Source: a virus (lineage: Duplodnaviria > Heunggongvirae > Uroviricota > Caudoviricetes). From it: a DNA stretch of 17,915 nt. Shown here piece after piece: positions 412 through 17,183 of the stretch. The position numbers and the translations under genes are program-made. Position 1 is the stretch's first letter. Each line of letters opens with the position of its first letter. The notes below the pieces were generated by a model. The model saw nothing but the letters and a program-made list of their open reading frames with translations. It ran no database searches and was not told where the DNA came from. Location of the stretch: the IMG/VR virus record IMGVR_UViG_2703718843_000008, one strand, 5' to 3'.

Positions 412-537
412 ATGTCTGCACCTGCACTGCCTGATGTCAGAACAGTATTTTGATGAATTGCCAAGGTTACAATGGCACAAATACGGCACAGGAGGAAACG
501 TGGTGTATTTAAATATGGGGTAACTCTTTGATTTTAA

Positions 538-554
538 TGGTGCCGATAATAGGA
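538..554. repeat. Distal att core: 17-bp direct repeat TGGTGCCGATAATAGGA, identical to 12161..12177 (18 bp identical if 537/12160 is included)
   Basis: Exact repeat seen at both ends of the satellite. The sequence is the reverse complement of the tRNA 3' end (TCCTATTATCGGCACCA). Confidence 0.65.
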
Positions 555-671
555 ATAAAATAAAACGATAACACACTGAAAAATATACAAAAAAGAAACA
601 CACCGTTAAGTAATGCCCCCGAAAATGCCCCCATAATAGATGCCGCAGTAAGTCGACTTGTCCCAAGGACT

Positions 672-714
672 GGTAAGTAATGTCAATAGCGGGAACAAAG
701 AGACATTACTTACC
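672..714. repeat. Perfect 13-bp inverted repeat (GGTAAGTAATGTC / GACATTACTTACC), 17-nt spacer, just downstream of the PRTase gene stop
   Basis: Seen directly. No U-tract follows on either strand, so it is not a canonical intrinsic terminator. Confidence 0.4.
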
Positions 715-734
715 GAGAATGGAATCCATTTAGG

Positions 735-1961
735 TTATGCTGGCCAATCCCACTGCTGATAGGCAGAGAATAGGCGCGTGAGCTCAGCAGGCGCAAGAAT
801 ATCAACAATATTAGCTCTGTAGCTATGCGATTTACCTAATGGAACATTTTCGAAATGATTAGCTTGATAAGGATTAAAATCGTGAAGCTCACCTAATGTT
901 GAGATATCGGTATTAATAGTTTTAAGCCAAGAAACAAGAATTACTTTTGCCCCTGTTCTCTGTATGTAAGCTCTTGCCGATTCAAAACTATAGCCTCGCG
1001 TTGTTATATCATCTATAAGAAGTACTGTTTTACCAGGGCCTAAAGGTGGTTTTTTATAGGTAGTTCTAGGATTTCTGTGTGGCTTAGAATTAAGACAAAT
1101 TGTATTAAGTTGATTGCAATGGTCAATTGCAACTCCCTCATTTCTTGCTTTTTGAGATTTTTTGGAAGTCGTATGCCTTAAAATAAGATCTGGGATATAC
1201 GTCTTGCGAAAACATTTTCCAAATATTGAAATCGCTTCATCCATGATATTATTCCCATATCCTTGCTTATGCCCTGGATAAACACTAACATAATTAATCA
1301 TCTTATGAATGCCACTAAAATAGAGACTGGATATTAAGGCACTCGTCCAAAATTCAGGATGGCCTAATCCATGTTTAGCAGCACGAGCATCTTCAGAGTA
1401 AAGAGTATACTCTTCCTTCATGGTGCTGAAAGGAGCAAGTGCATAGAAATTAAAATCACCATCGTGAATTTCATGACACCAAAGATGCTCTCTTAAACAG
1501 AAGGTATCTATAAATCTAGCAATATCTTTAGGGGTTGAAAACTCGAAACCATAATCTGTTTTGTCTGCCCACCATGTAGCTCTTAAAAAGAGCAACTCAC
1601 CATTAACTGCTGTTTGCATGTCGTTTATCGAAGCACCAATGTACAAAGTTTCTGTACTTTCCCAACCCATCAAATCAAGGACATATTTTGTAGCATCCGC
1701 AGTTGGCTTCCCTGGAATGCTCTTATCTTTCGCTCGACAAAGATATTTAAATTCTCCCCAATGCTTTTGTAACACATCCTCTAAAGGGGTTCTTTCATCT
1801 CCGACAACCCACCCCCTGTTAGTGAATACAACAAACTCGATCTTTTTAGTTCTGAAATATCTAATTAATTTATCTACCTCTGCAAAGATTTCGCTATCGA
1901 TCTTTCCCTTAGGCACAAGAATATCTTCAACACTAAGAATCACACCCTTAATTTTGCTCAT
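735..1961 (-). CDS. Two-domain protein: N-terminal HAD-like domain with non-canonical motif I, C-terminal type I phosphoribosyltransferase (PRTase) domain; candidate defense effector
   Basis: 408-aa ORF, ATG preceded by AAGGAAGA. C-terminal PRPP-binding signature GKTVLLIDDITTRGYS. N-terminal HAD-like motifs (FVVFTNRGW; GKP; IGASINDMQTA) but the usual DxD nucleophile position reads SVEDIL. AT-rich. Confidence 0.85.
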   Translation of the reverse strand: MSKIKGVILSVEDILVPKGKIDSEIFAEVDKLIRYFRTKKIEFVVFTNRGWVVGDERTPLEDVLQKHWGEFKYLCRAKDKSIPGKPTADATKYVLDLMGWESTETLYIGASINDMQTAVNGELLFLRATWWADKTDYGFEFSTPKDIARFIDTFCLREHLWCHEIHDGDFNFYALAPFSTMKEEYTLYSEDARAAKHGLGHPEFWTSALISSLYFSGIHKMINYVSVYPGHKQGYGNNIMDEAISIFGKCFRKTYIPDLILRHTTSKKSQKARNEGVAIDHCNQLNTICLNSKPHRNPRTTYKKPPLGPGKTVLLIDDITTRGYSFESARAYIQRTGAKVILVSWLKTINTDISTLGELHDFNPYQANHFENVPLGKSHSYRANIVDILAPAELTRLFSAYQQWDWPA

Positions 1962-1971
1962 TTCATCTTCC

Positions 1972-3036
1972 TTAGAGATCTAAGCTCTGCTGTATCGGCT
2001 GTGCTTTTAAATCATGATTATTATTCAAAATATAATTACTCATCTCATTCAATTCAAAAGGCATTAAAAAAGATAAAGAATTTCTATTTTCTTCAGCAAA
2101 CTTCAATTCTGGTCTACTTTCATACGTAGTAGGAAGATATGGACTCGCTATCTTTTTTGCATACTTAAAAGCATAATCAACAGTATGTGATGTTCCACTT
2201 TTAATATTCCATTCGACTGGTATTAGTGAATCACATAAAGCAGCCTGGATTCTGTTGCGCCTTACAAAATTTTCTGCGCTATATGTTTGTTCAGGTAGAT
2301 ACTCGGTAACGATAGCCCCACCATTAGAAACTATTGCTCGATATAACTCTTTAGAACCTTTCGGATACTCGACAAAAATCCCATTACCCAATACCGCAAT
2401 AGTTGGAATGCCATATCTCAGCGATTCATAATGACAACATTGATCTATTCCTGTCGCCAAACCACTGACTGTTGAAACATCTTTAGAATATAGAGAAGAA
2501 ACAATCAGTTTTACTAGAAAAATACCATCATCCGTTGGCTTTCGTGTCCCCACAATTGCAACAGATTTCTTATTAAGAAGTTCATAATTACCATGAACAA
2601 AAATCCAAAATGGCGGATCGCTTATGTTCTTTAATGATTGAGGAAATGTAGCCTGATCATAAAAGGTGAGCACAATACCATTTTTATTGAGTTCACGAGC
2701 TCTCTCCAGTCCCTTAGACCAAAGGTCTTGTTGAAATGTTTCCCAAGATATATTTTTAGGCAAGGAAACTCTTAGATATCCTGCCAAGGCATCAGCTGTA
2801 TTATCTTTTAATATATTCTTAAATCCAATTTTGGATTGATAGATTTTGCGAAGCGTCCAGTAACCAACCCCCTTTAGACAAGTTAAGGCAAGAAACGCAA
2901 TAATTTCATTTTTCCAAAACTCTCTAACTTCAGTGTAATCTTTATATTCCATTTTACGTTTGCCTTTTAGATTACAACCCGTACTCAACACAAAAAATTT
3001 AGAAAATTGTTGCCAAAAGCATATTATAAATAGCAT
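1972..3036 (-). CDS. DprA/Smf-like (SLOG superfamily) protein; candidate defense partner of the PRTase protein
   Basis: Rossmann-like DprA signature VAIVGTRKPTDDG ... SGLATGIDQCCH ... TIAVLGNG ... YP ... RRNRIQAAL. Stop codon lies 10 nt before the PRTase ATG, so the two are co-transcribed. True start may be the internal ATG at 2952 (MEYKDY...); the first 28 codons are AT-rich and include a TATAAT. Confidence 0.8.
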   Translation of the reverse strand: MLFIICFWQQFSKFFVLSTGCNLKGKRKMEYKDYTEVREFWKNEIIAFLALTCLKGVGYWTLRKIYQSKIGFKNILKDNTADALAGYLRVSLPKNISWETFQQDLWSKGLERARELNKNGIVLTFYDQATFPQSLKNISDPPFWIFVHGNYELLNKKSVAIVGTRKPTDDGIFLVKLIVSSLYSKDVSTVSGLATGIDQCCHYESLRYGIPTIAVLGNGIFVEYPKGSKELYRAIVSNGGAIVTEYLPEQTYSAENFVRRNRIQAALCDSLIPVEWNIKSGTSHTVDYAFKYAKKIASPYLPTTYESRPELKFAEENRNSLSFLMPFELNEMSNYILNNNHDLKAQPIQQSLDL

Positions 3037-3317
3037 CTTACCGCAGATTTGTGAAGCAACAACATCCCTAGGAGAAACCTTAACCTAGCGGGATAACTTA
3101 CTGACCAATCCTCAGCTAGCTCATTGAATTGCCCCCATATCGCACAGCCCCGCACGCCTGCCCGCTTCGCTTAACAGACTGGTTTTCATGCACCTCATAA
3201 ATCGTCTCAGAAGCCACCAAACAAGGGCTTTCTCGTCAAAAATGGTGCATAAGACTCATGCGTTTTCATGCGCCATAGACATGCACTCATGCGCTCTCAG
3301 GCCAGCCAGGGAAAAGG

Positions 3318-3346
3318 TGTTAAAAATCCCGGTACTCGACCGGGAT
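3318..3346 (-). terminator. Intrinsic terminator of the late (sid-psu-ogr) operon
   Basis: On the minus strand, stem AATCCCGGT / ACCGGGATT with 5-nt loop, followed by TTTTAA; about 20 nt downstream of the ogr-like stop. Confidence 0.55.
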
Positions 3347-3366
3347 TACGTGAGAGTTTTTTCTAA

Positions 3367-3639
3367 TCAGACAGGAATCTGCTGACGGCTTGACAGTTTT
3401 GACGCGGAGCCATAGCGATTGAGCGTTTGCTGTTGTTTTACCAGGGTTTGTGATTTGTCTGGTTCCTGTTCATTGCGCCGGGGTTTCATGATTATCTTAT
3501 CCACACTCTCCAGTGCCGTAAATGTGCAGGAACATTCCAGATTCTGGCACTGATACCACGAGCGTTTAACTGACGGAGCTTCATAGGCTGCTGTTCTGGC
3601 GTGTGCAACTGTACCGCATTCCGGACATTTAAGTGCCAT
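3367..3639 (-). CDS. ogr: Ogr/Delta-family zinc-finger late transcription activator
   Basis: MALKCPECGTVAHARTAAYEAPSVKRSWYQCQNLECSCTFTALESV matches the P2 Ogr / P4 Delta C-x2-C ... C-x4-C pattern. ATG at 3639 is preceded by AGGAG; the ORF-track start at 3648 is a GTG. Confidence 0.85.
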   Translation of the reverse strand: MALKCPECGTVAHARTAAYEAPSVKRSWYQCQNLECSCTFTALESVDKIIMKPRRNEQEPDKSQTLVKQQQTLNRYGSASKLSSRQQIPV

Positions 3640-3644
3640 TAATA

Positions 3645-4196
3645 TCACTCCTGTATATCGTTAATGTCATTCAGGCGTTGCTGAAAACGCAGATGTTGTG
3701 CCGGAGTGTAAGAGCCCTGGCAATCACGAATCATACTGGGGTCAGGCATCAAACCGGATTCATCCAGGATCTCACGATAATCCCCGGCAATTTCAGGCGG
3801 TGTTATTGCCAGCTGGCGAACCAGAGCACTGCGTAATATACGAAACGCAACGTCAACCCCTCCGCGTCCCTTCAGGAACGGAGCCAGTGCAGATGTCAGG
3901 GCTGCCCCATTCGCCTGCATAAAATTGCTGAGAGCGGCTTCTGTGCAGGCCTCCATCAATAAATGCTGCGAGTAAATGCATTCGCGCGCAGCACAGTTAA
4001 TTTGCCATTTCAGCACATCCAGACGTTCCCGCAGTAATTCGAGCTGTCGGGCATAATCTGCTGGTTTTTCTGTGGCAGTGAGGAGAGATGCTATCTGTTG
4101 TTCAACGGCTTTTCGGCTCTCACTATGTCCGGCCCACAGAATACGGGCATTCCGAAAACTGGTAAGTGCCTGGTCAGGTGTGCCTCGGGCCGTCAT
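3645..4196 (-). CDS. psu: Psu-like polarity suppression protein (P4 family)
   Basis: 183 aa. Segments LKWQINCAA ... FMQANGAALTSALAPFLKG ... YTPAQ resemble P4 Psu as I recall it. ATGA overlap with the upstream gene; AAGGAG RBS. Confidence 0.7.
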   Translation of the reverse strand: MTARGTPDQALTSFRNARILWAGHSESRKAVEQQIASLLTATEKPADYARQLELLRERLDVLKWQINCAARECIYSQHLLMEACTEAALSNFMQANGAALTSALAPFLKGRGGVDVAFRILRSALVRQLAITPPEIAGDYREILDESGLMPDPSMIRDCQGSYTPAQHLRFQQRLNDINDIQE

Positions 4197-4936
4197 ACTG
4201 CTTTCTCCTTCTCAGCAAGTTCCTGACGAACCTTTATTTTATGCATAGCTGCCGGAGAGAGTTGATTACTGAAATCCAGACGCGCCGCATAATCCGGGGC
4301 AACTCCCGCCAGTTTAAACACCGGGTCCTGTTCAGGCATCGCATCGTTAGCCAGAGCCGGTCTGGTGATATGTTTATGAATAAAGTCTTTCAGCACTGTG
4401 TCCGGGTCATTAACTGAATTCACCACACCCACAACGGCACTGGCTTCCCGGCCCATTGTGGATTTAAGCAGGCTCAGCGTCTGAATAAGCGCTTTTCCAT
4501 GCGACTGCATAAAATCCTCCCAGATTTGTTTTGCGCGAATATCCACAAGAATGTTATGCGCGTGGATATACTTTCCGGCTAATTCCGCAGCTTTCTGCGG
4601 CAAAAGTGCATTTTCGCTTTCCTGAGCCGCCAGCAGCTCATCAAAATCCTCAAGCGTTTCTCGTCCCAGCGCAATTTCCGTGCGCAGTTTTTTCATTTCC
4701 TTTGAGACCACGCCCTGACTTTCACGAAACAGCGTGCGCCACTCCTCATTCAGTGTATTCGTCGTGGATTCCATTTCAGCGCGGCGCTGGCGGATTGTCG
4801 CAATATTATCCGCTGCCGCTTTCTGCTGACGACGTGCTTCAAGCCATGCGTTTCTGGCTGTGTTCATGGTTTCCAGTGCCCGCTGCGTTACAGCCGGAAA
4901 AGTGGAAAGGTTGTTATTCACTGCGGTGTTGTTCAT
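4193..4936 (-). CDS. sid: Sid-like capsid size determination (external scaffold) protein, putative
   Basis: 247-aa helical, Gln/Glu/Ala-rich protein directly upstream of psu and ogr. Assignment rests on size and position, not a specific motif. Confidence 0.45.
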   Translation of the reverse strand: MNNTAVNNNLSTFPAVTQRALETMNTARNAWLEARRQQKAAADNIATIRQRRAEMESTTNTLNEEWRTLFRESQGVVSKEMKKLRTEIALGRETLEDFDELLAAQESENALLPQKAAELAGKYIHAHNILVDIRAKQIWEDFMQSHGKALIQTLSLLKSTMGREASAVVGVVNSVNDPDTVLKDFIHKHITRPALANDAMPEQDPVFKLAGVAPDYAARLDFSNQLSPAAMHKIKVRQELAEKEKAV

Positions 4937-5114
4937 GACTTCTCCTGTCGGGTTGGTTCGTTACGTCAATTGTGTCGTGGCTGACACAAGCACACTATCG
5001 GTGCTCAGTGTGTGGTGGCTGGCACAACGGGCGCTTGCGGTTATTCAGACGTGGCTATGAAAGCCAGCCAGATAAAAATGCCCACTGTTTCAGTCTGCTT
5101 TATGTCCCTGATGC

Positions 5115-5311
5115 GGTGGAACAGGTGAAACATGTGTTACAGCTTTGTTTTATAAATCATTTATATACACTGCACCGGTGGAACATCGCGGGTAACAAGG
5201 TGGAACAGCGGATTGGCTGGCGTTACATCTGTTCCACCTCACTATTTCAGAAGGTGGAACAGGTTCAGCCCCTGTAAAATACGGTTGTTCCACCTGTTTC
5301 ACCTGTTACCC
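5115..5311. repeat. Iteron cluster with AT-rich tract; putative satellite replication origin / cis replication region
   Basis: At least 7 copies of GGTGGAACA / TGTTCCACC in both orientations (5115, 5177, 5199, 5230, 5253, 5286), plus GGTGAAACA / TGTTTCACC variants and an AT-rich stretch at about 5137..5170, immediately downstream of the primase-helicase gene. Confidence 0.6.
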
Positions 5312-5337
5312 TTAATAAATAAGACTCACGCAAAGCC

Positions 5338-8010
5338 TTAACCCGGCACCTCGCTGTTGAAGACATAGAGCCTGCGGGGATTCATCTCTGGCGGGCGAAT
5401 GGTTGTCTGGAGTTTGCCATCAGTGGAGGGCAGCAGGTATCCACGATCTGCGCACAGACGCGCCACCTTGCGCGGGTCAAATCCCCTGCAGATTTCTTTC
5501 CAGCCGGACGGCATGACATAAAACGTAGTGACAGCTTCCGTGCCCTGCGCGGTACTGCCTTTCTCCACCCTGCGCCAGCCCACCATATTGGCGGGACGGT
5601 TGCGCTCGTCATACCAGTCTGCAAAGCGGCTGTACTGATTCGCGGTAAAGAAACTGCGAACCTGCTCCAGTGCGGCGATATCTTCCTGATTGGCGGTGTG
5701 CCCGCGCTCTTTCAGCCATGCGTTCAGGCAGACGCGGGTTGCCCGCAATGCTTCACCCTCAGGCCAGCCGGTGATACCCAGACGGGTTGCCAGTTCACCT
5801 GCCATCGCCACCAGTGCAAAGCGGTTCACAGCCCGGCCCACCTGATTGCCTGCATCTTTCGGAGTCAGGGCGGCAGCATATTCCTTCATCAGCGATTTTG
5901 CCTGTGCCGTTAGTCCGTTAAGATCAGCGGTCAGTGCTTTCAGCCACTCCCGGAACGGCGAACCGTAGTAGCAGGACGTGGCCCATTCAAGATGCTCTGC
6001 CAGAGCCTTGCCGCTGTCGAAGCCGTGCAGCTCCTCAAAAACGCCAAACTTCCCGGAATCGCTGGGGATCTGGATCATCCTGACTTCCATCCCGGCAAAA
6101 GTACGCTCACCGGCCTTTGCCGCATGTTCGGTCAGAGATAACTCGCCAGTTGAAAAGAACAACAGGCGCCACTGCTTACGGGTACGCAGTTCACCGTCCG
6201 TACCGGCACGACTCTTGCCCTGACCGTTTGCCAGCATGTAGGCGATATTGCCTGCCTCGCGTCCGTCAACTTCCCGGATCTCATCAAGCATCATGGCGGC
6301 ATCGTTGCGGCGGCTGGCACATCCCTCCAGCGCGTTGCCGGTGGCCCGCCATGTCTGCCAGTAGTCAGGCCCGCCGCAGACGGAGGTTGCCGCTTTCATG
6401 GTGGTGGTCTTACCGTCTGTCGATTCCCCTTTGAGGTGGTAGCCGCCGCCGTCCATACCAACCAGCCGTAACAGTGGTGCAGCAAAGGCCAGGCTGACAG
6501 CAAATGCCACGCGGGAGTTGCCGGTACAGTAGCGGGATACGTTCTCCCGCCATTCCTCTGTTGTGCCCGACACGCGGAAATCACGCCCCTGCACGGAAGT
6601 GGTCTGGAGAATGACACCCTCTGCACCTTCACCGCTGACCTCATCCTGCAGGACGTAAACCTGACCATGCCAGCCAGTACGGCTGACGCAGGTCACGCGA
6701 CGTTCCGGTTTACACAGTGAGATATATTCCATCAGGCGTGCGCGTGCCTCACCGGTGGTGCTGATATAAGACAGCCCGTTAACAAGCAGTACCCGGCGCA
6801 GTTCCTCACCACTGCCGCTCAGCATTTCCATCGGCATCGCCCAGCGGCGACGCTCACCCCACGTATCTTCCCATTCCAGCAGTCGTCCGAAGTTACCGCC
6901 ATCGGCATCGCAGGTGATTGCCGTCACGCGCAGCGGGCTGCATATTTTGACGTTCTGGATCTCCGTCTCACCGTTGCGCTGTACCTGCTTTTCATACCAG
7001 AGATATTCCTGGGTAAGACGGAACCCGTGCGGCAGTTGCGTGCGGCCTTCCCCGCACAGTACCAGACCGTTGCGAAAGGCTTCACGGGCACGGGTAATAC
7101 CGTGCTCCCGATGAAAGTCATTCCAGTCAGCCTTAATCTCTCCTGGTGGCAGCGTCATCCAGCCGCCAACAGCTTTTGCCGCCCGTTCAGCAAAGGCTCT
7201 GCCGGGATTCTCCCCCCCGTCCTGAAAATCGTTATCACCGGCGATGATAATTTTTACCTCAGGCCAGCGTGCCCGCAGCGACTGCGCCACATTGGGCAGG
7301 TTGCCCGCAGATATGGCAGCCACTACGCATCCGGCAGTGAGCTGGCTTACCGTCAGCGCCGTAGCGTAACCTTCGGTAATCACCACCTGTACCGGTGGTT
7401 CAGACGGTAACGGGCTGAGCGACACAAACGCGCCTTTCATCGTGCTGCCGGGCAGTATGCTTTTTTCACCCGTCGGGGCGATAAGCTGTGCACCGGTCAC
7501 GGCTCCGGTGTTGGTCGTGAGTGGTAACAGCAGGGAACCGGCAGGAAAATCCTTACCGCTGATATGCTGCACGCTTCCGGTCAGAGAGGCCGGGTATCCG
7601 GCGAACCCTTTTCCTGCCAGATAGGCACTTTCTCCCGTGTGGCTCTCTTTCATCAGCGTCGCCACGGTAAGGCTCATGTCGCGTTTAGGGGCTTTTTGTC
7701 TGGCAGGCTTAACAGGCAGTTCCTGCACATCCGGCACATTAAGCACCTGCGCCACCTGCTGCGCAGCCTTTCTGACGTTGTAGCCGGTTACGAGCTTAAC
7801 CAGATCCAGACCGTCACCATTGCCACACTGGCTGCAGATCCACGTCCCGCGCCCGTCAAGGTCATCGAGGCGAAAACGATCCTTGCCCCCACATTTCGGG
7901 CAGGGACCGTGCCTGCCGTTTTCAGGTACATCAATACGCAGCATATGCAGAATAACGGGCCATTTCCCCCGCGCGGCGGCTGAAATCTGCGTAACCGTCT
8001 GTATTGTCAT
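5338..8010 (-). CDS. P4 alpha-like replicative primase-helicase
   Basis: 890 aa. N-terminal zinc-binding motif CPKCGG ... CSQCG; Toprim-like VVITEGYATA ... IIIAGDND; P-loop GESTDGKTTT. ATGA overlap with the upstream ORF. Confidence 0.9.
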   Translation of the reverse strand: MTIQTVTQISAAARGKWPVILHMLRIDVPENGRHGPCPKCGGKDRFRLDDLDGRGTWICSQCGNGDGLDLVKLVTGYNVRKAAQQVAQVLNVPDVQELPVKPARQKAPKRDMSLTVATLMKESHTGESAYLAGKGFAGYPASLTGSVQHISGKDFPAGSLLLPLTTNTGAVTGAQLIAPTGEKSILPGSTMKGAFVSLSPLPSEPPVQVVITEGYATALTVSQLTAGCVVAAISAGNLPNVAQSLRARWPEVKIIIAGDNDFQDGGENPGRAFAERAAKAVGGWMTLPPGEIKADWNDFHREHGITRAREAFRNGLVLCGEGRTQLPHGFRLTQEYLWYEKQVQRNGETEIQNVKICSPLRVTAITCDADGGNFGRLLEWEDTWGERRRWAMPMEMLSGSGEELRRVLLVNGLSYISTTGEARARLMEYISLCKPERRVTCVSRTGWHGQVYVLQDEVSGEGAEGVILQTTSVQGRDFRVSGTTEEWRENVSRYCTGNSRVAFAVSLAFAAPLLRLVGMDGGGYHLKGESTDGKTTTMKAATSVCGGPDYWQTWRATGNALEGCASRRNDAAMMLDEIREVDGREAGNIAYMLANGQGKSRAGTDGELRTRKQWRLLFFSTGELSLTEHAAKAGERTFAGMEVRMIQIPSDSGKFGVFEELHGFDSGKALAEHLEWATSCYYGSPFREWLKALTADLNGLTAQAKSLMKEYAAALTPKDAGNQVGRAVNRFALVAMAGELATRLGITGWPEGEALRATRVCLNAWLKERGHTANQEDIAALEQVRSFFTANQYSRFADWYDERNRPANMVGWRRVEKGSTAQGTEAVTTFYVMPSGWKEICRGFDPRKVARLCADRGYLLPSTDGKLQTTIRPPEMNPRRLYVFNSEVPG

Positions 8011-8390
8011 ACTTCCCCCTGATACAACGTCACACCAGTACTGCAGAAGTCATCAAAGGTCGCCGGAAGCGTGCGGTACATCTCCGCCATTACTTCACAG
8101 CCGCGCGCGGTCAGTACCGGCGGCGCGGTCAGCAGTGACGGCTCCAGCATGTCAGTCAGCAGTGCCAGCGCGGCAGCGGCGCCCTGTGCTTCGCCGTACT
8201 CGTTAATCAGTGCGCACTCGATATGCAGCGCAATGGCCATTTCAATACGCTCCACCGTCAGGCTGTGCGGACCATACTGATCACTGCCAGTTTCGTTCAG
8301 CATTTTCTGCCGCCATGCTGAAGCAATAGCCCGCCGGTAAAGCGCGGTTGTCATTTCTGCCGGGAAAATGGAAACCTGCGGCTGGTTCAT
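8007..8390 (-). CDS. Hypothetical satellite early-operon protein
   Basis: 127-aa ORF with strong RBS (GAAGGAGGTG); translationally coupled on both sides by ATGA overlaps. Confidence 0.55.
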   Translation of the reverse strand: MNQPQVSIFPAEMTTALYRRAIASAWRQKMLNETGSDQYGPHSLTVERIEMAIALHIECALINEYGEAQGAAAALALLTDMLEPSLLTAPPVLTARGCEVMAEMYRTLPATFDDFCSTGVTLYQGEV

Positions 8391-8671
8391 CTGGCACCTC
8401 CTTCAATCAGTGCACAGCTGTGCGCAATATCCGTCAAATCTGCCCGCAGGTACTCCATCAGCGCGGCGACACCATGCGCACAGCCAGCGTCCAGTGCTCC
8501 GGCCTGAGACGAGTATTCAGAAAAGAGAAGCTGGAGCATGTCGCAGGCATTTCTTGCGCGGGTCAGCTTTCCGAAACTGTCCTCTGACAACCCATAGGCA
8601 AAAGCACCGGTATTGTGTTTTTCAGGCAAAGTGTGGCCCTGAGCACCGTTGTGCCCGTTTGAAATATTCAT
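8387..8671 (-). CDS. Hypothetical satellite early-operon protein
   Basis: 94-aa ORF, ATG start with ACGGAG RBS, ATGA overlap with the downstream gene. Confidence 0.55.
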   Translation of the reverse strand: MNISNGHNGAQGHTLPEKHNTGAFAYGLSEDSFGKLTRARNACDMLQLLFSEYSSQAGALDAGCAHGVAALMEYLRADLTDIAHSCALIEGGAR

Positions 8672-8702
8672 CGTGGATTACTCCGTTTTCAGCGGTATTT
8701 TG

Positions 8703-9062
8703 TCAGAGAAACTTTGAATAGTGACCGTCGTCAGGCTCAGCAGAACGCCGTATGCTACGCTCCCGCCAGCGGATAAATAGCACAGACGGATGCAGTGTCA
8801 GCGGGCCGGAACCACTACCGCCTGCAGGAGCTGGTGCAGGCTTAAAGAGCGGTACATCAAACAGGCGCGTATACCGCTGTTCAAACCATGCCAGAGGGCA
8901 GGAAGAAAGCTGGTTGTCGCTGTCATGACGTATCAGCACTTCACAGCTGAATTCAGGATTAACCAGCGCCACAGAGGGCGAGGCTTCAATTAATCGGATA
9001 ATCGTGACCGTCCAGCCACGTTCATGCTGCCAGCGTTCGCCGGGGTGCGGATAATTACGCAT
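8703..9062 (-). CDS. Hypothetical satellite early-operon protein
   Basis: ORF-track start at 9092 is a TTG; the ATG at 9062 (MRNYPHPGERW...) is preceded by GGAGGTG and is the likelier start. Confidence 0.5.
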   Translation of the reverse strand: MRNYPHPGERWQHERGWTVTIIRLIEASPSVALVNPEFSCEVLIRHDSDNQLSSCPLAWFEQRYTRLFDVPLFKPAPAPAGGSGSGPLTLHPSVLFIRWRERSIRRSAEPDDGHYSKFL

Positions 9063-9231
9063 GTTCACCTCCGCAGGGAATGCGCCCGGCAAAGCTCAGT
9101 ACATAATCCGGGGCAAGTCTGCGCCGCGCTGACCGCTCGTTATCTGCGGTGATCCTTAACATCACAGGACGGGCATTGCGTTGACTGCGGTTGATCGCCG
9201 CAAATAACCAGGTACACTTCTGTTTAGCCAT
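9055..9231 (-). CDS. Small hypothetical protein (58 aa), first gene of the leftward operon
   Basis: ATG with AAGAGGT RBS; MAKQKCTWLFAAINRSQRNARPVMLRITADNERSARRRLAPDYVLSFAGRIPCGGEHA. Below the 60-aa ORF-track cutoff. Stop overlaps the next gene's start. Confidence 0.4.
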   Translation of the reverse strand: MAKQKCTWLFAAINRSQRNARPVMLRITADNERSARRRLAPDYVLSFAGRIPCGGEHA

Positions 9232-9320
9232 CTTCGTTACCTCTTATAACGGTTGGTTAAATGCCCGATTTGTGTTCCCGCACAATCGGGCATTGCTTTT
9301 ACAAGCGAACTATACTTACA

Positions 9321-9365
9321 ATGGTAATTACCATGTAGTCATCATATTCTAGGGTAATTACCATG
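9321..9365. promoter_or_regulatory. Two palindromic operator-like sites in the divergent promoter region
   Basis: ATGGTAATTACCAT (9321..9334, perfect 14-bp palindrome) and GGTAATTACC (9353..9362). The second overlaps the ATG of the ribbon-helix-helix gene. Confidence 0.5.
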
Positions 9366-9536
9366 TCAACACCACAAGAGAAACGTTCCCCACCATTCCA
9401 AATGCGTCTTACCGACGATTTTAGGTTGCAACTCGAAAAAGAAATGCGCAAAGATGGAGATAGCGCGTTGGCAACTTGGATTAAAAGAATTTTACGTAAA
9501 GAACTACAATCACGCGGGATTGACCCTAAAGGTTAA
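9363..9536 (+). CDS. Arc/Mnt-like ribbon-helix-helix repressor (57 aa)
   Basis: PPFQMRLTDDFRLQLEKEMRKDG-DSALATWIKRILRKEL follows the beta-strand/helix/helix pattern of Arc-type repressors. Divergent from the early operon. Not in the ORF track (under 60 aa). Confidence 0.55.
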   Translation: MSTPQEKRSPPFQMRLTDDFRLQLEKEMRKDGDSALATWIKRILRKELQSRGIDPKG

Positions 9537-9568
9537 TCAGTTAAATATTACTAACTATCAATTAAGGC

Positions 9569-9859
9569 TTAGGGAGTAGGTGATAATCTATTCCCTTTAT
9601 TAATTGCTCTTGCCTTATTTCTCATCCCCTCAAACTGTTGACCTGAGTTTTCTTCAAACCCATCTCGCCACTTATAATAATCAGCAGCGCGCCATCGGGA
9701 CATCCGACCTATTTTTATAGGTTTTGGAAAGCGATTCAGAGAAATCAATCGATAAATCCATTTGTCACTTAATAAACAATCGGAAGTAATAAACTTCATA
9801 TCGATCAGAGAATCCATTGAAGGTCGTTGCAAAGTAGTATTATCATGTTTAGATAACAT
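9569..9859 (-). CDS. AlpA/Vis-family HTH protein (excisionase or regulator)
   Basis: 96 aa; IYRLISLNRFPKPIKIGRMSRWRAADYYKW matches the AlpA-type pattern (FP-P-I-G ... W ... W). GGAG RBS. Confidence 0.75.
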   Translation of the reverse strand: MLSKHDNTTLQRPSMDSLIDMKFITSDCLLSDKWIYRLISLNRFPKPIKIGRMSRWRAADYYKWRDGFEENSGQQFEGMRNKARAINKGNRLSPTP

Positions 9860-9984
9860 TCATCATTCTCCGTTTATCTAAGTCTATTGGCTTCAACACG
9901 GAAAATTAAAACATAGGTTATAAATGAGAAAAATGTGACTAATGAAAAAAATCCAAAATCATTAGTCACAATAATTGTTAACAT

Positions 9985-10809
9985 TTAGTTAAACTTAATG
10001 TTTTTCATGCAACTACGTAGCAAGCTAACAACAGTATCATAGCTCAAAGGTGGTTCTCCGGTCTTAGGCCAGAACTCACTGGCATGTTGAAAAAGATAAT
10101 CAGCTATCGCTGCTGGACTCTCTCTTCTTAGCCTCATATCACGATGATAGAGCGAAATAATAGCCATGAGTATTTCAGTTCGAGGAACAGCATGTTTTTG
10201 TTTTTGCGCCTCAGATTGTGATTTATATTTATTGGCGTTTTTTATCCGTTTTTGTTCGCATAAGACTATATCAATGAATTTTTGAATCTGTACCTTTGTA
10301 ATCCACAAAACCTCAAAAAGATAATAATTTTCTTTTTCATCATAATTTACATAAAGAATTACCTTACAATTTATATTAGGCGTACCCGCCAGTAGAAAAT
10401 GAATAGGCCAGGAATCCGGTTGCCCCTCATGCTTAACTAACAGATCTTTATATTCATAATCAACAGCCCATAAACCGGATATAAAGCATCGAATAAAACC
10501 ATTTTTATCAATTAAATTATTTTCATCAGGGATTCTTATAGAGCTTAAGTCTGACAACATAATATTGCCATTTCTATCTCGTGGTAAATATTTCAGATTA
10601 GATAAGAACTCATCCATTTGACCATCAATCTTCAAACCACATGAAACATCATACTCATCATCATGGAATTCCATGCATAGCTCTACATCTCGTTCTCTGG
10701 CAAACCAGAGTATATCCTTTTCACTACAACCAATTTTTTCTGAAGCTTCATCCAACTGGTAGTAATCTCTGAGCAGAGAATCAGTATTATTAATTTTTAA
10801 AATATTCAT
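9985..10809 (-). CDS. Hypothetical protein, AT-rich orphan cargo gene translationally coupled to the integrase
   Basis: 274-aa ORF whose ATG overlaps the integrase stop (ATGA). Marked AT-rich codon usage; no motif I can recognise. Confidence 0.65.
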   Translation of the reverse strand: MNILKINNTDSLLRDYYQLDEASEKIGCSEKDILWFARERDVELCMEFHDDEYDVSCGLKIDGQMDEFLSNLKYLPRDRNGNIMLSDLSSIRIPDENNLIDKNGFIRCFISGLWAVDYEYKDLLVKHEGQPDSWPIHFLLAGTPNINCKVILYVNYDEKENYYLFEVLWITKVQIQKFIDIVLCEQKRIKNANKYKSQSEAQKQKHAVPRTEILMAIISLYHRDMRLRRESPAAIADYLFQHASEFWPKTGEPPLSYDTVVSLLRSCMKNIKFN

Positions 10810-11996
10810 TTATGAGTACCAATTAGCTCAGATAAATAATTAGCATACCATTGCATCATTTCTCTTCTCCCTTCGAGATATTGGGCATGGTTATAAATTC
10901 CACGAATAGAGTTTTTGTCCGAATGAGCAAGCTGGGTTTCAATCCAAGCGCTGTTAAATCCTTTCTCATGTAGAATTGTACTCATCGTATGCCTGAAACC
11001 ATGTCCCGTAACACGCCCTGCATATCCAATACGTTTAAACACCTGATTGATGCTTGCTTCACTCATAAATTTGCTAGGATCGTTGCGTCCAGGGAACATC
11101 AGCGGGTAGTTCCCAGTTAGTTCTTTCAAACTTTTGAGATGGGATAATGCTTGTTTTGGTAACGGGACAATATGGCTCCTACGCATTTTCATACGTTCTT
11201 TTGGGATCTCCCACACCGCATTATCAAAATCCACCTCTCGCCACTCACCTGCTCGTAGTTCTCCAGTTCGTAGACCTGTCAGGATAAGTAAATGCGCCCC
11301 CAACAATACAATTGGACTTCCTGAATAAGAATTAAGGGCATTAAAGAACTCCGGTAGTTCGTTGGCTTTGAGGAATGGATAGTGGACTGCTTCATGTCCT
11401 TGCATCGCACTGGCAAGATCCGGTGCCGGATTGTAGATTGCCCTACCCGTTACGATGGCATAGCGAAAAACTTCACCGCATCGCTGACGGACTTTCTTCG
11501 CTTTCTCCATAGCGCCTCGAGCTTCTATCAACCTCAGAACTTCAAGCAGTTCAAGGGGCTGAATATCAGCTATAGGTCTGTGCCCAATATGCGGAAAAAT
11601 GTCTTTCTCAAATGCCTCAATGATGTCGGAAGCATAGCCCTCAGACCATTTGGATGATTTCATTTTGTGCCACTCTAACGCCACTTCTCTGAATGGGTTA
11701 AGTGTCTCAATCGCTGCGTTTAAAGCCTGCTTTTTGGCTTTTTTGACTTCGCCGGGATCTTCACCTGCTGCGAGTAGTTTCTTTGCGTCTTCTCGTTTTT
11801 GTCTGGCATCAGCAAGTGTGACTGTTGGATAAACACCAAAGGACAATCGTTTCTCTTTACCAGCAAAACGGTATTTCATACGCCAGTAACGCGAGCCATT
11901 AGGTTCGACCTGAAGGTATAGGCCACCTCCATCAAACAGCTTATAGCTCTTCTCTTTTCCTTTCGCAGCTTCAACCTTGCGGGCATTCAGCATCAT
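10806..11996 (-). CDS. int: P4-type tyrosine integrase
   Basis: N-terminus KSYKLFDGGGLYLQVEPNGSRYWRMKYRFAGKEKRLSFGVYP is typical of P4-family integrases; C-terminal catalytic residues HGFRHT ... Y. ORF-track start at 12065 is a TTG; ATG at 11996 or 11993 (MMLNARKVE) fits the family N-terminus better. Confidence 0.9.
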   Translation of the reverse strand: MMLNARKVEAAKGKEKSYKLFDGGGLYLQVEPNGSRYWRMKYRFAGKEKRLSFGVYPTVTLADARQKREDAKKLLAAGEDPGEVKKAKKQALNAAIETLNPFREVALEWHKMKSSKWSEGYASDIIEAFEKDIFPHIGHRPIADIQPLELLEVLRLIEARGAMEKAKKVRQRCGEVFRYAIVTGRAIYNPAPDLASAMQGHEAVHYPFLKANELPEFFNALNSYSGSPIVLLGAHLLILTGLRTGELRAGEWREVDFDNAVWEIPKERMKMRRSHIVPLPKQALSHLKSLKELTGNYPLMFPGRNDPSKFMSEASINQVFKRIGYAGRVTGHGFRHTMSTILHEKGFNSAWIETQLAHSDKNSIRGIYNHAQYLEGRREMMQWYANYLSELIGTHK

Positions 11997-12160
11997 TGGG
12001 GGCACATTTCCTAGACCGAACAGAACATGCCCCTGATTGTGCCCCCAACCGCGTGTTGATTTCAAGAGACAAGGGTTGACCTCAAACGTATGAAAACAAC
12101 GTAATATATATGTTTTTAAATGATTTTGTTGATGTGGGTTGACTTGGGAAAACTAGGTGA

Positions 12161-12209
12161 TGGTGCCGATAATAGGAGTCGAACCTACGACCTTCGCATT
12201 ACGAATGCG
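12161..12209 (-). pseudogene. ptwF: Partial tRNA-Thr(CGU) gene, 3' 49 nt only (thrW-like att remnant)
   Basis: Minus strand reads CGCATTCGTAATGCGAAGGTCGTAGGTTCGACTCCTATTATCGGCACCA: anticodon stem-loop with CGT anticodon, T-arm (GGTTCGACTCC), acceptor 3' strand and CCA. No D-arm or 5' acceptor strand upstream. The symbol is my recollection of the K-12 name. Confidence 0.75.
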
Positions 12210-12318
12210 ATGTTAATGCATTTTTAACTACTTGAGCAATCAATCAAAACAACATACTTTATATTATAAAACACCAAGTTATAGCAATAAACCCGTTGAT
12301 TGAAATTAACAAAAGTTG

Positions 12319-13719
12319 ATGTTTATTCCCTCCATTTACTTACACCAGCAGTTACATTATTGTAAGACAGCAATTCTCAACTGGAGCCGAAAAATGGCGC
12401 TTTCAAGACAAAAATTTACCTTCGAAAGACTTCGCAGATTCACCTTACCGGAAGGGAAAAAACAAACTTTTCTTTGGGATGCAGATGTAACAACCCTGGC
12501 ATGCCGAGCAACTAGCGGAGCAAAAGCCTTTGTATTCCAAAGCGTATATGCGGGGAAAACCCTTCGCATGACTATTGGCAACATTAACGACTGGAAGATT
12601 GATGATGCGAGAGCCGAGGCAAGACGGTTACAAACATTGATCGATACAGGGATAGATCCACGAATTGCTAAGGCTGTAAAAATCGCAGAAGCAGAATCCC
12701 TGCAGGCAGAATCACGTAAAACAAAAGTGACTTTCTCCGTCGCCTGGGAAGACTATCTTCAAGAATTGAGAACCGGTATCAGTGCAAAAACTAAACGCCC
12801 ATATTCTACTCGATACATTGCCGATCACATTAACTTGTCCAGTCGTGGAGGCGAAAGTAAAAAAAGAGGCCAAGGCCCGACTTCGGCTGGACCATTGGCT
12901 AGTTTGCTCAACCTGCCGTTATCGGAGCTAACCCCAGATTACATAGCAGCGTGGCTGAGTACAGAAAGGCAAAATAGACCTACCGTCACTGCTCACGCTT
13001 ATCGCCTACTACGTGCTTTCATCAAATGGAGTAATTATCAGAAAAAATATCAAGGGATCATTCCTGGCGATCTGGCACAAGATTACAACGTAAGAAAAAT
13101 GGTTCCCGTGTCAGCGAGTAAAGCTGATGATTGCCTGCAAAAGGAACAACTAAAAAGCTGGTTTAGTGCCGTGCGTAGCCTCAATAATCCTATTGCATCG
13201 GCCTATCTCCAAGTACTTTTGCTCACTGGTGCTCGGCGTGAAGAAATTGCGTCGCTTCGCTGGTCAGACGTAGATTTCAAATGGTCAAGCATGCGAATTA
13301 AAGACAAGATCGAAGGTGAACGTATCATCCCTCTCACTCCTTATGTTTCTGAATTGTTAAATGTACTAGCGCAATCCCCAAATTCTGACGTAAATAAGGA
13401 GGGTTGGGTTTTCAGAAGTAACAGTAAAAGTGGCAAAATTATTGAGCCGCGTTCAGCGCACAACAGAGCGTTAGTGCTGGCTGAGTTACCACATATCAGC
13501 CTTCACGGTTTACGTCGTAGTTTTGGTACTTTGGCCGAGTGGGTTGAAGTTCCCACTGGTATTGTTGCTCAAATTATGGGACACAAACCCAGCGCTCTTG
13601 CCGAAAAACACTATCGCCGTCGTCCGTTAGATCTGTTACGAAAATGGCACGAGAAAATTGAGACATGGATCTTAAATGAAGCAGGTATTACCATAAAAAA
13701 CAACGTTGATATGCGTTGA
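12319..13719 (+). CDS. intF: Tyrosine integrase of the neighbouring cryptic prophage
   Basis: Tyrosine recombinase motifs LLLTGARREE ... HGLRRSFGT ... GHKPSALAEKHY. First ATG at 12319 gives 466 aa (ORF-track start 12316 is a TTG). Confidence 0.85.
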   Translation: MFIPSIYLHQQLHYCKTAILNWSRKMALSRQKFTFERLRRFTLPEGKKQTFLWDADVTTLACRATSGAKAFVFQSVYAGKTLRMTIGNINDWKIDDARAEARRLQTLIDTGIDPRIAKAVKIAEAESLQAESRKTKVTFSVAWEDYLQELRTGISAKTKRPYSTRYIADHINLSSRGGESKKRGQGPTSAGPLASLLNLPLSELTPDYIAAWLSTERQNRPTVTAHAYRLLRAFIKWSNYQKKYQGIIPGDLAQDYNVRKMVPVSASKADDCLQKEQLKSWFSAVRSLNNPIASAYLQVLLLTGARREEIASLRWSDVDFKWSSMRIKDKIEGERIIPLTPYVSELLNVLAQSPNSDVNKEGWVFRSNSKSGKIIEPRSAHNRALVLAELPHISLHGLRRSFGTLAEWVEVPTGIVAQIMGHKPSALAEKHYRRRPLDLLRKWHEKIETWILNEAGITIKNNVDMR

Positions 13720-13835
13720 TTCCATTAAAAATCAACATATTACAAAATATCATCAACTATTGATCAAGATAGATTTTCATGTATCGTAATACACAGTTTA
13801 GTCAATGATACAGCAACTACACAGGAGATAAGCCA

Positions 13836-14276
13836 ATGGCAACCCCAGCAACTGTATCCATAGAACCCACTCTGGCAGCTATCAGAGCTCGCTGGTGTAT
13901 TAATTCAAGTAAAACAACTCAATCCTTTAACGATCCTGCGTCCATGGAAGAGGTTGTCGAGTATCTCAAAGGAACATACTCAGCTCTTCGCAAGTCTGTC
14001 GCATGCGCCAAACTGAAAATTTTACATCTTAAACAAAGAATGCAAAATGCTACTAACTTTCTCGCGCGTCTGATGTCATGTAAAAATCAGGCATCCAGAT
14101 CGCATCACAGTACGGCTAAATCAGCTAAAAGTGCCTTATCATCAGATTCAGGTGATGGTAGTGACCCCGACCCCGAGCCCGAAACGTTTCCTTCTGCCTT
14201 CATTACTACCCCTACTAATTCAATAATGCTTAAAGCTTTCTTTGCCAATATCTCAATCACTGAGGTGGCAAAATGA
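13836..14276 (+). CDS. yagN: Hypothetical prophage protein
   Basis: 146-aa ORF, AGGAG RBS, Ser-rich acidic C-terminal region. Symbol from recollected size and context only. Confidence 0.6.
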   Translation: MATPATVSIEPTLAAIRARWCINSSKTTQSFNDPASMEEVVEYLKGTYSALRKSVACAKLKILHLKQRMQNATNFLARLMSCKNQASRSHHSTAKSAKSALSSDSGDGSDPDPEPETFPSAFITTPTNSIMLKAFFANISITEVAK

Positions 14277-14497
14277 GCGCATTCAAACTCCCGGATACAT
14301 CTCAATCACAGCTCATTTCAACAGCTGAGTTAGCTAAAATCATTAGCTACAAATCTCAAACCATTCGTAAATGGCTTTGTCAGGACAAATTGCCTGAGGG
14401 GCTACCTCGCCCAAAACAAATCAATGGCCGCCATTACTGGTTACGTAAAGATGTCCTCGATTTTATAGATACATTTTCTGTACGAGAAAGTCTGTAA
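14273..14497 (+). CDS. Small HTH protein, AlpA/excisionase-like
   Basis: 74 aa, GAGGTGG RBS, start overlaps the upstream stop (ATGA). LISTAELAKIISYKSQTIRKWL ... INGRHYWLRKDVLDFI. Confidence 0.55.
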   Translation: MSAFKLPDTSQSQLISTAELAKIISYKSQTIRKWLCQDKLPEGLPRPKQINGRHYWLRKDVLDFIDTFSVRESL

Positions 14498-14615
14498 TAA
14501 ATTACAGATTTAATTTTATTGATTTATAGCGATGTTGCCCCGAGAAAAATGGGGCAACACTGAGAAATTTCAGATAGTAGTTTTATATTGAGATAACAAA
14601 GAGGTTTCCTTAAAA

Positions 14616-15470: not shown

Positions 15471-15496
15471 GAGGTAACAAAGAAGGACAAACAATT

Positions 15497-16195: not shown

Positions 16196-16299
16196 TTCCA
16201 GAAGCTAATTGCAGAGTAACTTTTTAACAGCCATCACAGGCTGGGGCTACCTTCGTCTCAAATTTAGATGTTGGATAGGTATTATATAATGGCATTGTG

Positions 16300-16444
16300 T
16301 ACTCTTACTACCTGTATTCACCAGTAAGAGTAGTAATCAGATCAGTATGTCCGTACTAAAATCTGATACCAGTATATACCGACAACAGTGACCAGGAATA
16401 GCCCTGCCTGTATGGCATCCCTGTACGGTCTGCTATAGACCGTA
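16300..16444. repeat. Structured intergenic region with several inverted repeats and CCTGTA motifs
   Basis: 10-bp IR TACTCTTACT / AGTAAGAGTA (16300..16332); 7-bp IR ATCAGAT / ATCTGAT (16336..16367); hairpin TACGGTCT-gctat-AGACCGTA (16424..16444); CCTGTA(T/C) at 16311, 16407, 16419 and its complement at 16453. Confidence 0.4.
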
Positions 16445-16466
16445 GGACCAAATACAGGTATATATT

Positions 16467-17093: not shown

Positions 17094-17102
17094 GTCGGTA
17101 AT

Positions 17103-17138
17103 GGCCTTCTCAGTGAGAAGGCCTTATTTGTATTGTTT
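17103..17138 (+). terminator. Intrinsic terminator downstream of the yagK-like gene
   Basis: Stem GGCCTTCT / AGAAGGCC with loop CAGTG, followed by TTATTTGTATTGTTT; 10 nt after the stop. Confidence 0.6.
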
Positions 17139-17183
17139 CAAAAAATTACTAAAATGCAGTTTCGTTACGCAATTTTCTATAGA

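Follow-up and report, generated by a model that had tools for sequence, protein, structure and literature searches.

A probable P4-like satellite at Escherichia coli thrW with an AT-rich, exchangeable defence-cargo slot next to cos

P4-like phage satellites carry a hotspot for defence genes that lies directly adjacent to cos and holds one defence system per element (PMC9122126; PMC13586616). The main finding of PMC13586616 is that elements whose cores are nearly identical swap cargo rapidly, and cassettes that pair a HAD/phosphoribosyltransferase (PRTase) gene with a DprA-like gene are already among the P4 hotspot loci in the supplementary table of Rousset et al. (PMC9122126). Base composition is not discussed in the text of either paper. 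Here we describe a 17,915-nucleotide stretch of DNA (the window; IMG/VR record IMGVR_UViG_2703718843_000008) that, at a probability we put at roughly 85%, holds an 11,623-bp P4-like phage satellite integrated at the tRNA-Thr gene thrW of E. coli, with positions 555-3141 as its defence-cargo slot. As in the P4-like hotspot (Rousset et al. 2022; Moura de Sousa et al. 2026), the slot is variable, adjoins cos and is swapped on near-identical cores. The phenomenon is already known, since the P4-like satellite, the cos-adjacent defence hotspot and Shosta are all described categories; the same locus is present at 99.8% identity in RefSeq genomes, and the window is a clean example.

The element is delimited by a perfect 18-bp direct repeat, ATGGTGCCGATAATAGGA, whose copies lie 11,623 bp apart, the distal one (attR) at 537-554 and the proximal one at 12160-12177. 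This is the sole such repeat pair flanking the element and its sequence is the 3' end of thrW. The proximal copy is embedded in a truncated thrW (12160-12212, minus strand), whose 3' 52 nt align identically with intact thrW and whose 5' half has been replaced. A tRNA gene at the int end was considered and rejected; the match scored by Rfam (45.5 bits) is by alignment the truncated thrW, and ARAGORN called none. The size (the type of about 10-12 kb), the att repeats at a tRNA and the lack of structural genes identify the element as P4-like. Its core genes int, AlpA-like, alpha, Psu, sid-like and Ogr/Delta were detected, and no capsid or tail genes were found among its open reading frames (ORFs). 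Ten complete E. coli genomes possess this element, 99.6-99.8% identical and flanked by thrW-proA on one side and the yagP' pseudogene-paoD on the other; none in the collection contains the whole window.

A BLAST comparison with relatives whose backbone is 98.5% identical finds two shared stretches, 1 to 554-583 and 3142/3145 to 12212, and what lies between them is unrelated. On the left, variable sequence starts directly after the att core. On the right, conservation begins at CAGCCCCGCACGCC, and homology among all relatives begins or ends at a cos-like core (3142-3172, minus strand) that was located by gapped alignment to the P4 cos end. The minus strand, AAGCGGGCAGGCG-TGCGGGGCTG, aligns with P4 AAGCGGGCGGGCGAGGCGGGGAAAG at that end, and the reverse complement of CAGCCCCGCACGCC with its upstream sequence pairs AAGCGGGCAGGCG-TGCGGGG with AAGCGGGCGGGCGAGGCGGGG and TGCATGAAAACC with TGCATTAAAACC. 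Variable sequence begins inside this core (3142-3146), placing the slot directly against cos as in the hotspot of Rousset et al. Both slot edges coincide, at base resolution, with predicted functional cis-sites. Since the P' arm of attP and cos bracket the variable sequence, the cargo proper spans about 633-3141. In the order of the circular or packaged form (delta, cos, ShosA, ShosT, attP, int) the slot is flanked by delta/cos and int only across attP, and it corresponds topologically to the hotspot described next to cos in P4 (PMC9122126, PMC13586616).

E. coli relatives with backbones 98.5-99.6% identical carry unrelated cargo between the same two breakpoints. The slot holds Drt3a/b in relatives L002 and L006, an S8 peptidase with an AAA ATPase in L003, retron St85 with RipA in L004 and L023, SMEK/DUF2326 in L005, another retron St85 variant in L022 and a single 398-aa protein in L021. 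There are at least seven different slot contents, including ShosTA and the two retron St85 variants, which qualifies the site as a hotspot. The backbones of L002 and L003, which differ in cargo (Drt3 and S8 plus AAA), are 99.58% identical; L002 and L006, which share Drt3 as cargo, reach 99.89%. The backbone of the window lineage is 98.5-98.7% identical to L002, L003, L006 and the other relatives compared. Unrelated cargo on near-identical backbones means that the cargo is exchangeable. A sequence-only reading of the window had taken this interval for an exchangeable defence locus, and the comparison across relatives bears it out with a conserved backbone and varying cargo. Its further proposal, that the cargo was acquired separately, agrees both with these unrelated cargos on 98.5-99.6% identical backbones and with the presence of the same cassette, at 89% nucleotide identity, on a different backbone in Klebsiella. 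The term recent, which it also used, is apt only by comparison: the cargo turns over faster than the backbone diverges (0.4-1.5%).

The flank next to the slot carries its own signature of exchange. The cos-proximal backbone (3142-4141) diverges by 2-5%, against about 1.2% elsewhere. Haplotypes in this stretch are mosaic and out of step with the relatedness of the backbones, with the window and L003 in one group, L002 and L005 in another, and L004 a hybrid. The raised divergence together with the mosaic haplotypes therefore indicates frequent homologous exchange in the cos/delta/psu flank. We propose that the slot would be refilled by recombination far faster than the backbone diverges, and that one border of the exchanged segment would always be cos, the other being either the att core or the 3' end of int. 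In E. coli strain 472 (L024, locus 1353-7802) the same late module occurs at 92% nucleotide identity in canonical P4 order (int, hotspot, cos, delta/psu/sid), with an early operon that is divergently oriented. The late and cos module thus circulates among satellites of different architecture.

In the window the slot is occupied by two adjacent co-oriented genes, separated by a 10-nt gap, that match the ShosT and ShosA profiles of PADLOC and so constitute a Shosta system. The DprA-like/PRTase cassette that the sequence-only reading had pointed out as separable defence cargo at the satellite end can therefore be named: it is ShosTA in a variable slot. ShosT (735-1961, minus strand; 408 aa, intact) is a HAD-like and phosphoribosyltransferase toxin that matches PDLC03012 (E=1.5e-92) over profile positions 6-426 of 427. 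It aligns with PDB 8zvb over residues 4-407 (E=4e-87, about 38% identity), and its phosphoribosyl pyrophosphate (PRPP)-loop motif VLLIDDITTRG aligns with ILVIDDFCTEG of that structure. In Pfam, Hydrolase is at threshold and Pribosyltran below threshold. ShosT is identical at 406/409 positions to the RefSeq E. coli copies (409 aa). The differences are a one-codon in-frame deletion in an alanine run (residue ~196) and two substitutions, all of them probably neutral. ShosA (1972-2952, minus strand; 326 aa) is a DprA-like antitoxin, for which the mechanically called ORF reaches 3036. It matches PDLC03961 (E=3.3e-90), Pfam DNA_processg_A (E=3.8e-58) and PDB 9vzo/8zva (E ~2e-71, about 45% identity, full length), and is identical at 326/326 positions to RefSeq WP_001567470.1.

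The characterised ShosTA pair, a type IV toxin-antitoxin and abortive-infection system, is that of avian pathogenic E. coli (APEC) O1 (PDB 8zvb, 8zva, 9vzo, 9w2p), in which a DprA-like ShosA likewise lies upstream of, and co-oriented with, a HAD-like and PRTase ShosT. There, ShosT couples phosphoribosyltransferase and pyrophosphatase activity, disrupts purine metabolism and kills the cell (PMC11961720, PMC12961424). ShosA binds single-stranded DNA (ssDNA) and RecA, and counteracts ShosT without binding it (PMC11961720, PMC12961424). Because ShosA is unstable, the toxin is released by phage-induced shut-off of host protein synthesis (T7 Gp0.7) or by phage ssDNA, and the outcome is population-level protection (PMC11961720, PMC12961424). 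A DprA and PRTase pair from a P2 hotspot protects against T7 and lambda (PMC9122126). By homology to the APEC O1 system, ShosT of the window would act as a PRPP-dependent phosphoribosyltransferase/pyrophosphatase toxin that upsets purine metabolism, and ShosA would hold it in check as an unstable DprA-like antitoxin binding ssDNA and RecA. Phage shut-off of host synthesis, or a supply of ssDNA, would then free ShosT and the infected cell would be lost. Activity and trigger alike are predicted by analogy with that system. According to the Rousset supplementary table the APEC O1 copy was cloned from a P2-type prophage hotspot, whereas the lineage of the window lives in satellites; the exact protein accessions of the window pair were not found in the parts of those tables that were available.

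The cassette appears to be transcriptionally autonomous. A region of about 190 bp upstream of shosA (2953-3141, minus strand) is specific to the cassette: it is absent from relatives with other cargo and 89% shared with the Klebsiella ShosTA cassette. It presumably contains the cassette's own promoter. Just 3' of the ShosT stop is a terminator-like hairpin (666-714, minus strand) with a 13-bp stem and no T-run; the minus strand of 641-740 folds at -28.8 kcal/mol and the hairpin is kept in the Klebsiella cassette. A second terminator-like hairpin, AATCCCGGT-CGAGT-ACCGGGATT followed by a T-run (TTTAAC), lies just after the delta stop (3326-3348, minus strand; -13.2 kcal/mol). It separates the late operon from cos and scored below the threshold of the consensus scan. 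Of 5,426 complete E. coli genomes, 10 carry the ShosTA allele of the window, none of them below 99.6% identity; the late module was found in 851. Those ten form a sub-lineage in which the allele is fixed, with differences of 0.2-0.4% in cargo and backbone alike. Searches with the cassette DNA gave no match among phages, and among plasmids only matches of about 67% in Pseudomonas and Piscirickettsia.

Several observations weigh against the interpretation given so far. Once integrated, the satellite has the slot flanked by delta and attR, some 7.7 kb away from int, whereas the published definition puts it between psu and int. The slot is int-distal because the gene order differs from that of P4, and it would probably escape the search rule of Rousset et al., which asks for an integrase no more than 10 genes downstream of psu. 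The cos-like core differs from those of P2, P4 and 186 by a one-base deletion (GGCGTGCGGGGCTG...), which explains why a mismatch-only search for the canonical P2/P4 cos 19-mer (up to three mismatches) gave no match in the window. The cos-proximal 225 bp (within 3142-3366, minus strand) matched 0 of 50,697 phage records. Given this indel and the lack of a phage match, the helper phage and the mobility of the element are putative; the cos-like site is a candidate for use in packaging. The relatives, about 15 of them, were inspected by eye. A promoter and terminator consensus scan of 450-3450 gave no enrichment over shuffles, and the shosA promoter is for that reason a presumed one. Finally, ShosT and ShosA share no more than about 38% and 45% identity with the characterised pair, and the window system may therefore differ from it in trigger and in the range of phages.

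The sequence-only reading had started from composition, reporting AT-rich DNA at 540-3060 and 9550-10810 in a GC-richer backbone. Sliding GC, chi-square tests and shuffles confirm the break. In the sliding profile, GC is 0.34-0.39 across 500-3250 and 0.33-0.40 across 9250-11000, as against 0.47-0.52 across 3000-5250 and 0.57-0.61 across 5250-8500. By segment, 540-3060 (0.366) and 9550-10810 (0.340) each differ from 3061-9549 (0.543) in 2x2 chi-square tests (p=3.8e-51 and p=1.8e-39) and are alike in GC (p=0.13). None of 1000 shuffles of the satellite in 100-bp blocks reached the observed 2.5-kb minimum of 0.365, the lowest shuffled value being 0.394. The contrast is greatest at third codon positions, and GC1 and GC2 of the cargo are also reduced. 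GC at third positions (GC3) is 0.29 in ShosT, 0.25 in ShosA, 0.30 in the AlpA-like gene and 0.28 in orf274, compared with 0.46 in delta, 0.48 in psu, 0.50 in the sid-like gene, 0.64 in alpha, 0.65 in DUF5375 and 0.40 in int. Taken together, the ShosTA pair has GC3 of 0.27 and alpha with the early genes 0.62; the flanking host genes paoC, paoD, proA and proB have 0.57-0.66. Synonymous codon usage of the cargo differs from that of alpha and the early genes (p=7e-50), the late genes (p=1.5e-15) and five host genes (p=2e-67), and is indistinguishable from that of the second AT-rich block (p=0.22). Both compositional checks that the earlier reading had named for itself, sliding GC and codon usage, are thus significant, and the absence of a difference that would have counted against it was not seen. 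Its description of the remaining genes as GC-rich stands for alpha and the early operon (0.54-0.59); the late genes, at about 0.50, are average for E. coli.

Maximum-likelihood change-points derived from GC alone, blind to homology, were placed at 434/3041 and 9202/10917. These lie about 100-120 bp or less from the homology borders, namely the att core (537-554), cos (3142) and a junction at 9265-9305. The conserved core (3142-9285) has GC of 0.551 and the variable arc (9286-12159 plus 555-3141) 0.382 (p=3e-73). The satellite is therefore compositionally bipartite, with a GC-rich conserved core and an AT-rich variable arc. In the circle the arc is contiguous across attP, and integration divides it into the two AT-rich blocks. 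As the change-points found both module junctions to about 100 bp, composition is a cheap delimiter of hotspots, and it could delimit them in satellites with a non-P4 gene order that a 'psu-to-int' rule misses.

The second AT-rich block (9569-10809, minus strand) comprises an AlpA-like excisionase/regulator gene (9569-9859; Pfam Phage_AlpA 4e-4, PHROG excisionase 1e-6) and orf274 (9985-10809; 274 aa), which overlaps the stop of int. The earlier reading of 9550-10810 as acquired cargo did not hold: the interval belongs to the integration module and diverges at the rate of the backbone. The backbone of the thrW satellites, 98.5% conserved, includes this interval, whose divergence (1.0-1.8%) equals the backbone average. 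L021 and L022 share the core of the window at 98.1-98.2% from 3138/3145 to 9265/9305, beyond which there is no similarity, and the ends of this homology define the junction (9265-9305) at which the conserved core module (3142 to about 9285) gives way to the integration module. Each of the two has a different integrase, a different AT-rich gene adjacent to int (GC3 0.25-0.27) and a different helix-turn-helix (HTH) gene. Since the homology ends at 9265/9305 with different int modules beyond, the second block is part of the int module, and the alignments indicate that it would be exchanged only together with the integrase.

The orf274 product has no match in Pfam, NCBIfam, PHROG or PADLOC, and its AlphaFold model (mean predicted confidence, pLDDT, 81) has no significant neighbour in the PDB. 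The family is confined to Enterobacterales, its 90% cluster has 1,562 members, and the gene is always directly downstream of, and overlapping, a P4-type integrase. Positional homologs in L009 and L010 are only 24-31% identical in amino acids and equally AT-rich. This divergence is extreme beside integrases that are 85-93% identical at the nucleotide level. Homology of orf274 to P4 cII, which occupies the same position after int, was considered and rejected (BLASTP E=3.2). The int-adjacent genes of L021 and L022 have marginal or no similarity to orf274 and no Pfam match. Just past the junction, a perfect 14-bp direct repeat, GGTAATTACCATGT, occurs at 9323-9336 and 9353-9366 (30 bp spacing) and contains the palindrome GGTAATTACC. 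The GGTAATTACCATGT repeat is upstream of a 57-aa Arc-like ORF (9363-9536, plus strand) and looks like a candidate operator pair for a regulator of the element.

What the low GC means is a separate matter. It could be read as the mark of recent import from a low-GC donor, for both AT-rich blocks, with composition not yet adjusted to the satellite or the host. This fits the distance of cargo GC3 (0.25-0.29) from host (~0.60) and core (0.62), the rarity of the cassette (10/5,426 genomes) and the differing cargo on near-identical backbones. Several lines of evidence contradict it. The alternative cargos of this slot have GC of 0.31-0.35 and GC3 of 0.21-0.31. Every cargo sampled is AT-rich (GC 0.27-0.37, GC3 0.21-0.31), including the ABC-three-component system of L024, Kiwa of L010 and gop/beta/cII of P4 itself (GC 0.34-0.37, against 0.46 for P4 int and 0.61 for P4 alpha). 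In a protein search, identity of ShosT homologs falls from 99% in E. coli through 95% in Klebsiella, 84% in Salmonella and Cronobacter, 78% in Yersinia and 77% in Serratia to 69% in Pseudomonas, 68% in Halomonas and about 54% in Vibrio and Shewanella. The gradient roughly tracks taxonomy, the closest homologs are in Enterobacterales, and no low-GC donor is among them. (A scan of species-representative genomes with ShosT gave a single Halomonas locus; the protein search was far more informative.) The Klebsiella, Salmonella and Yersinia pairs lie immediately behind Ogr/Delta, in satellites with a gene for a P2-family capsid protein, and their GC3 is 0.20-0.31 at 89%, 74% and 69% nucleotide identity to the window, against about 0.60 in neighbouring host genes. 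Low GC3 is thus kept in four enterobacterial genera. At 69-74% identity synonymous sites among the ShosTA copies are largely saturated, so a GC3 that stays low is maintained and not transient. ShosTA homologs on a Pseudomonas fragi plasmid and in Halomonas are likewise AT-shifted (0.43, flanks 0.55-0.65). The 9550-10810 block, for its part, co-diverges with the backbone, and its family is AT-rich even at 24-31% amino acid identity. These data largely refute recent import, which we regard as very improbable, and the step from AT-rich to recent fails with it. Low GC in satellite cargo is no evidence of recent transfer, as it also marks conserved int-linked genes; it is a stable, class-wide property of the slot gene pool and of the int-linked regulatory genes, not a decaying mark of import.

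H-NS prefers AT-rich horizontally acquired DNA, and low GC could be actively selected if, for example, H-NS-type silencing keeps toxic defence genes off until induction. This would account for low GC3 kept over long divergence in hosts with GC3 of about 0.60, and for its being shared by unrelated genes that have only their location in the variable arc in common. The reduced GC1 and GC2 point as much to a general mutational or compositional background as to selection for silencing, and constant turnover from an AT-rich pool gives the same pattern. The persistence we describe could come from repeated re-seeding out of an AT-rich mobile pool as well as from maintenance in place, and the data do not separate selection from turnover as its cause. 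We consider selection possible but rather unlikely.

Slightly less probable still, in our view, is that cargo is swapped without homologous recombination, through the element's own cut-and-join sites, with terminase cutting at cos and integrase crossing over at the att core. This could proceed by cos-to-cos packaging across tandem satellites or by Int-mediated resolution of a cos-joined heterodimer. The arrangement of the window is suggestive: cos, cargo and attP are contiguous, in E. coli the variable sequence runs from directly behind the 18-bp att core to a point within the cos core, the spacer from att to arm is non-coding and conserved in length though not in sequence, and thrW is occupied in tandem. 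The block shared across genera also ends inside the cos core. Both PMC9122126 and PMC13586616 call the mechanism unresolved, and Rousset et al. speculate on cos ends. Site-mediated exchange, if true, would also explain why the AT-rich arc lies between cos and the control region of the early operon. Borders at the first and last conserved base are, however, expected under any mechanism when the cargos are unrelated. The 2-5% divergence and mosaic haplotypes at 3142-4141 indicate ordinary homologous exchange, the second border of the cross-genus block is the int stop codon and not the att core, and no tandem pair of satellites was observed among the relatives inspected. Canonical P4 has int between the hotspot and attP, so such a mechanism cannot be general. 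Whichever route applies, the contiguity of cos, cargo and attP makes this sub-family a simple system for studying cargo swapping.

Set beside P4 (NC_001609; 11,624 bp), the window element is almost the same length (11,623 bp), has a homologous cos-proximal region and shows a similar geometry of arm repeats around the att core. The compositional layout is also that of P4, with AT-rich cargo, int at 0.46 and alpha at 0.61, and the pattern is already visible in the P4 sequence of 1990. The two differ in attachment site (thrW in the window) and in gene arrangement. All genes of the window satellite are co-oriented (int, orf274, alpA, early, alpha, sid, psu, delta, cos, cargo, att), and its early operon and int module are inverted relative to the late genes, unlike in P4. 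The late order is sid-psu-delta where P4 has sid-delta-psu, and the AT-rich AlpA-like gene and orf274 replace the GC-rich ORF88/vis region of P4. No homolog of P4 epsilon or cI was detected in the window satellite.

A second group of relatives comprises P4-related satellites that encode a capsid protein (L010 and L013-L020; E. coli BCE049, Klebsiella, Salmonella and Yersinia). They have a related integrase, alpha and Ogr/Delta, with alpha about 69-71% identical to that of the window at the nucleotide level. As in the window satellite, their cargo slot comes directly after delta and holds Kiwa or ShosTA; the elements of Klebsiella, Salmonella and Yersinia have the ShosTA lineage of the window (95%, 84% and 78% amino acid identity). 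They differ in encoding a P2-family major capsid protein (with a GPO_N scaffold-like protein in Yersinia) and in lacking psu and sid. In Salmonella and Yersinia, int comes directly after the cargo, next to tRNA-Arg(cct). Between the Klebsiella and window satellites identity is high only in int (85%) and from att to cos (89%); alpha is 69% identical and nothing else aligns. Read along the Klebsiella element, the shared sequence is one contiguous high-identity block that runs from int through attP and ShosTA to cos.

The attachment region retains P4-type arm sites. Tandem integrase arm-type sites of the P' arm (612-632), two copies of AATGCCCCC with a 12-nt period arranged as AATGCCCCC-N3-AATGCCCCC, lie about 60 bp beyond the att core and are kept in all five cargo variants while their surroundings vary. 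On the int side (12000-12047) are an inverted GGGGGCAC at the int start and ATGCCCCT and GTGCCCCC 12 nt apart, arranged like the P4 attP arm repeats at 3915-3965. Those annotated in P4 are GATGCCCCCAAT, TATGCCCCCAAT, ATATGCCCCCTT and TTGTGCCCCCAC, plus the inverted GGGGGCAC at the int start. The window sites share with them the RTGCCCCC motif, the tandem 12-nt period and the distance from the core. P4-type motif and geometry are therefore kept although the integration site is thrW and not that of P4.

Every gene between 12065 and 735 is encoded on the minus strand. The tyrosine integrase (10806-11996; GC 0.45) is of the P4-Int type with an arm-binding domain (Pfam Arm-DNA-bind_3, Phage_int_M and Phage_integrase; coding length from RefSeq). 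The early region (5338-9231; GC 0.54-0.59), identified from Pfam and RefSeq, contains the alpha primase (5338-8010; Pfam DUF927 4e-91, Toprim_3, Zn_Ribbon_Prim), DUF5375, two small ORFs and an Icd-like gene, the naming resting also on how RefSeq annotates the locus that is 99.8% identical. None of these genes was recognised as a homolog of epsilon, and small ORFs at 8387-9062 match only PHROGs of unknown function. The late genes (3367-4936; GC ~0.50) are, by Pfam, delta (3367-3648; Ogr_Delta 7e-16), psu (3645-4196; Psu 2e-44) and a sid-like gene (4193-4936) with a weak Psu match (1.6e-9).

Outside the satellite, a 136-aa ORF within 1-411 was discarded as an artefact: 1-22 belong to paoD, as its 3' end, and 73-411 correspond to the yagP' pseudogene, a C-terminal LysR-family fragment according to the annotation of RefSeq relatives. 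To the right of the truncated thrW (12160-12237) is a second AT-rich island (12316-17915), which has an IntF-like integrase (12316-13719), an HTH_17 protein, two family-less ORFs, a resolvase/HTH-like ORF (15497-16195) and a protein of the YagK/YfjJ family (16467-17093). The satellite is in tandem with this CP4-6-like island at thrW, as in strain MB52; CP4-6 is an island of K-12.

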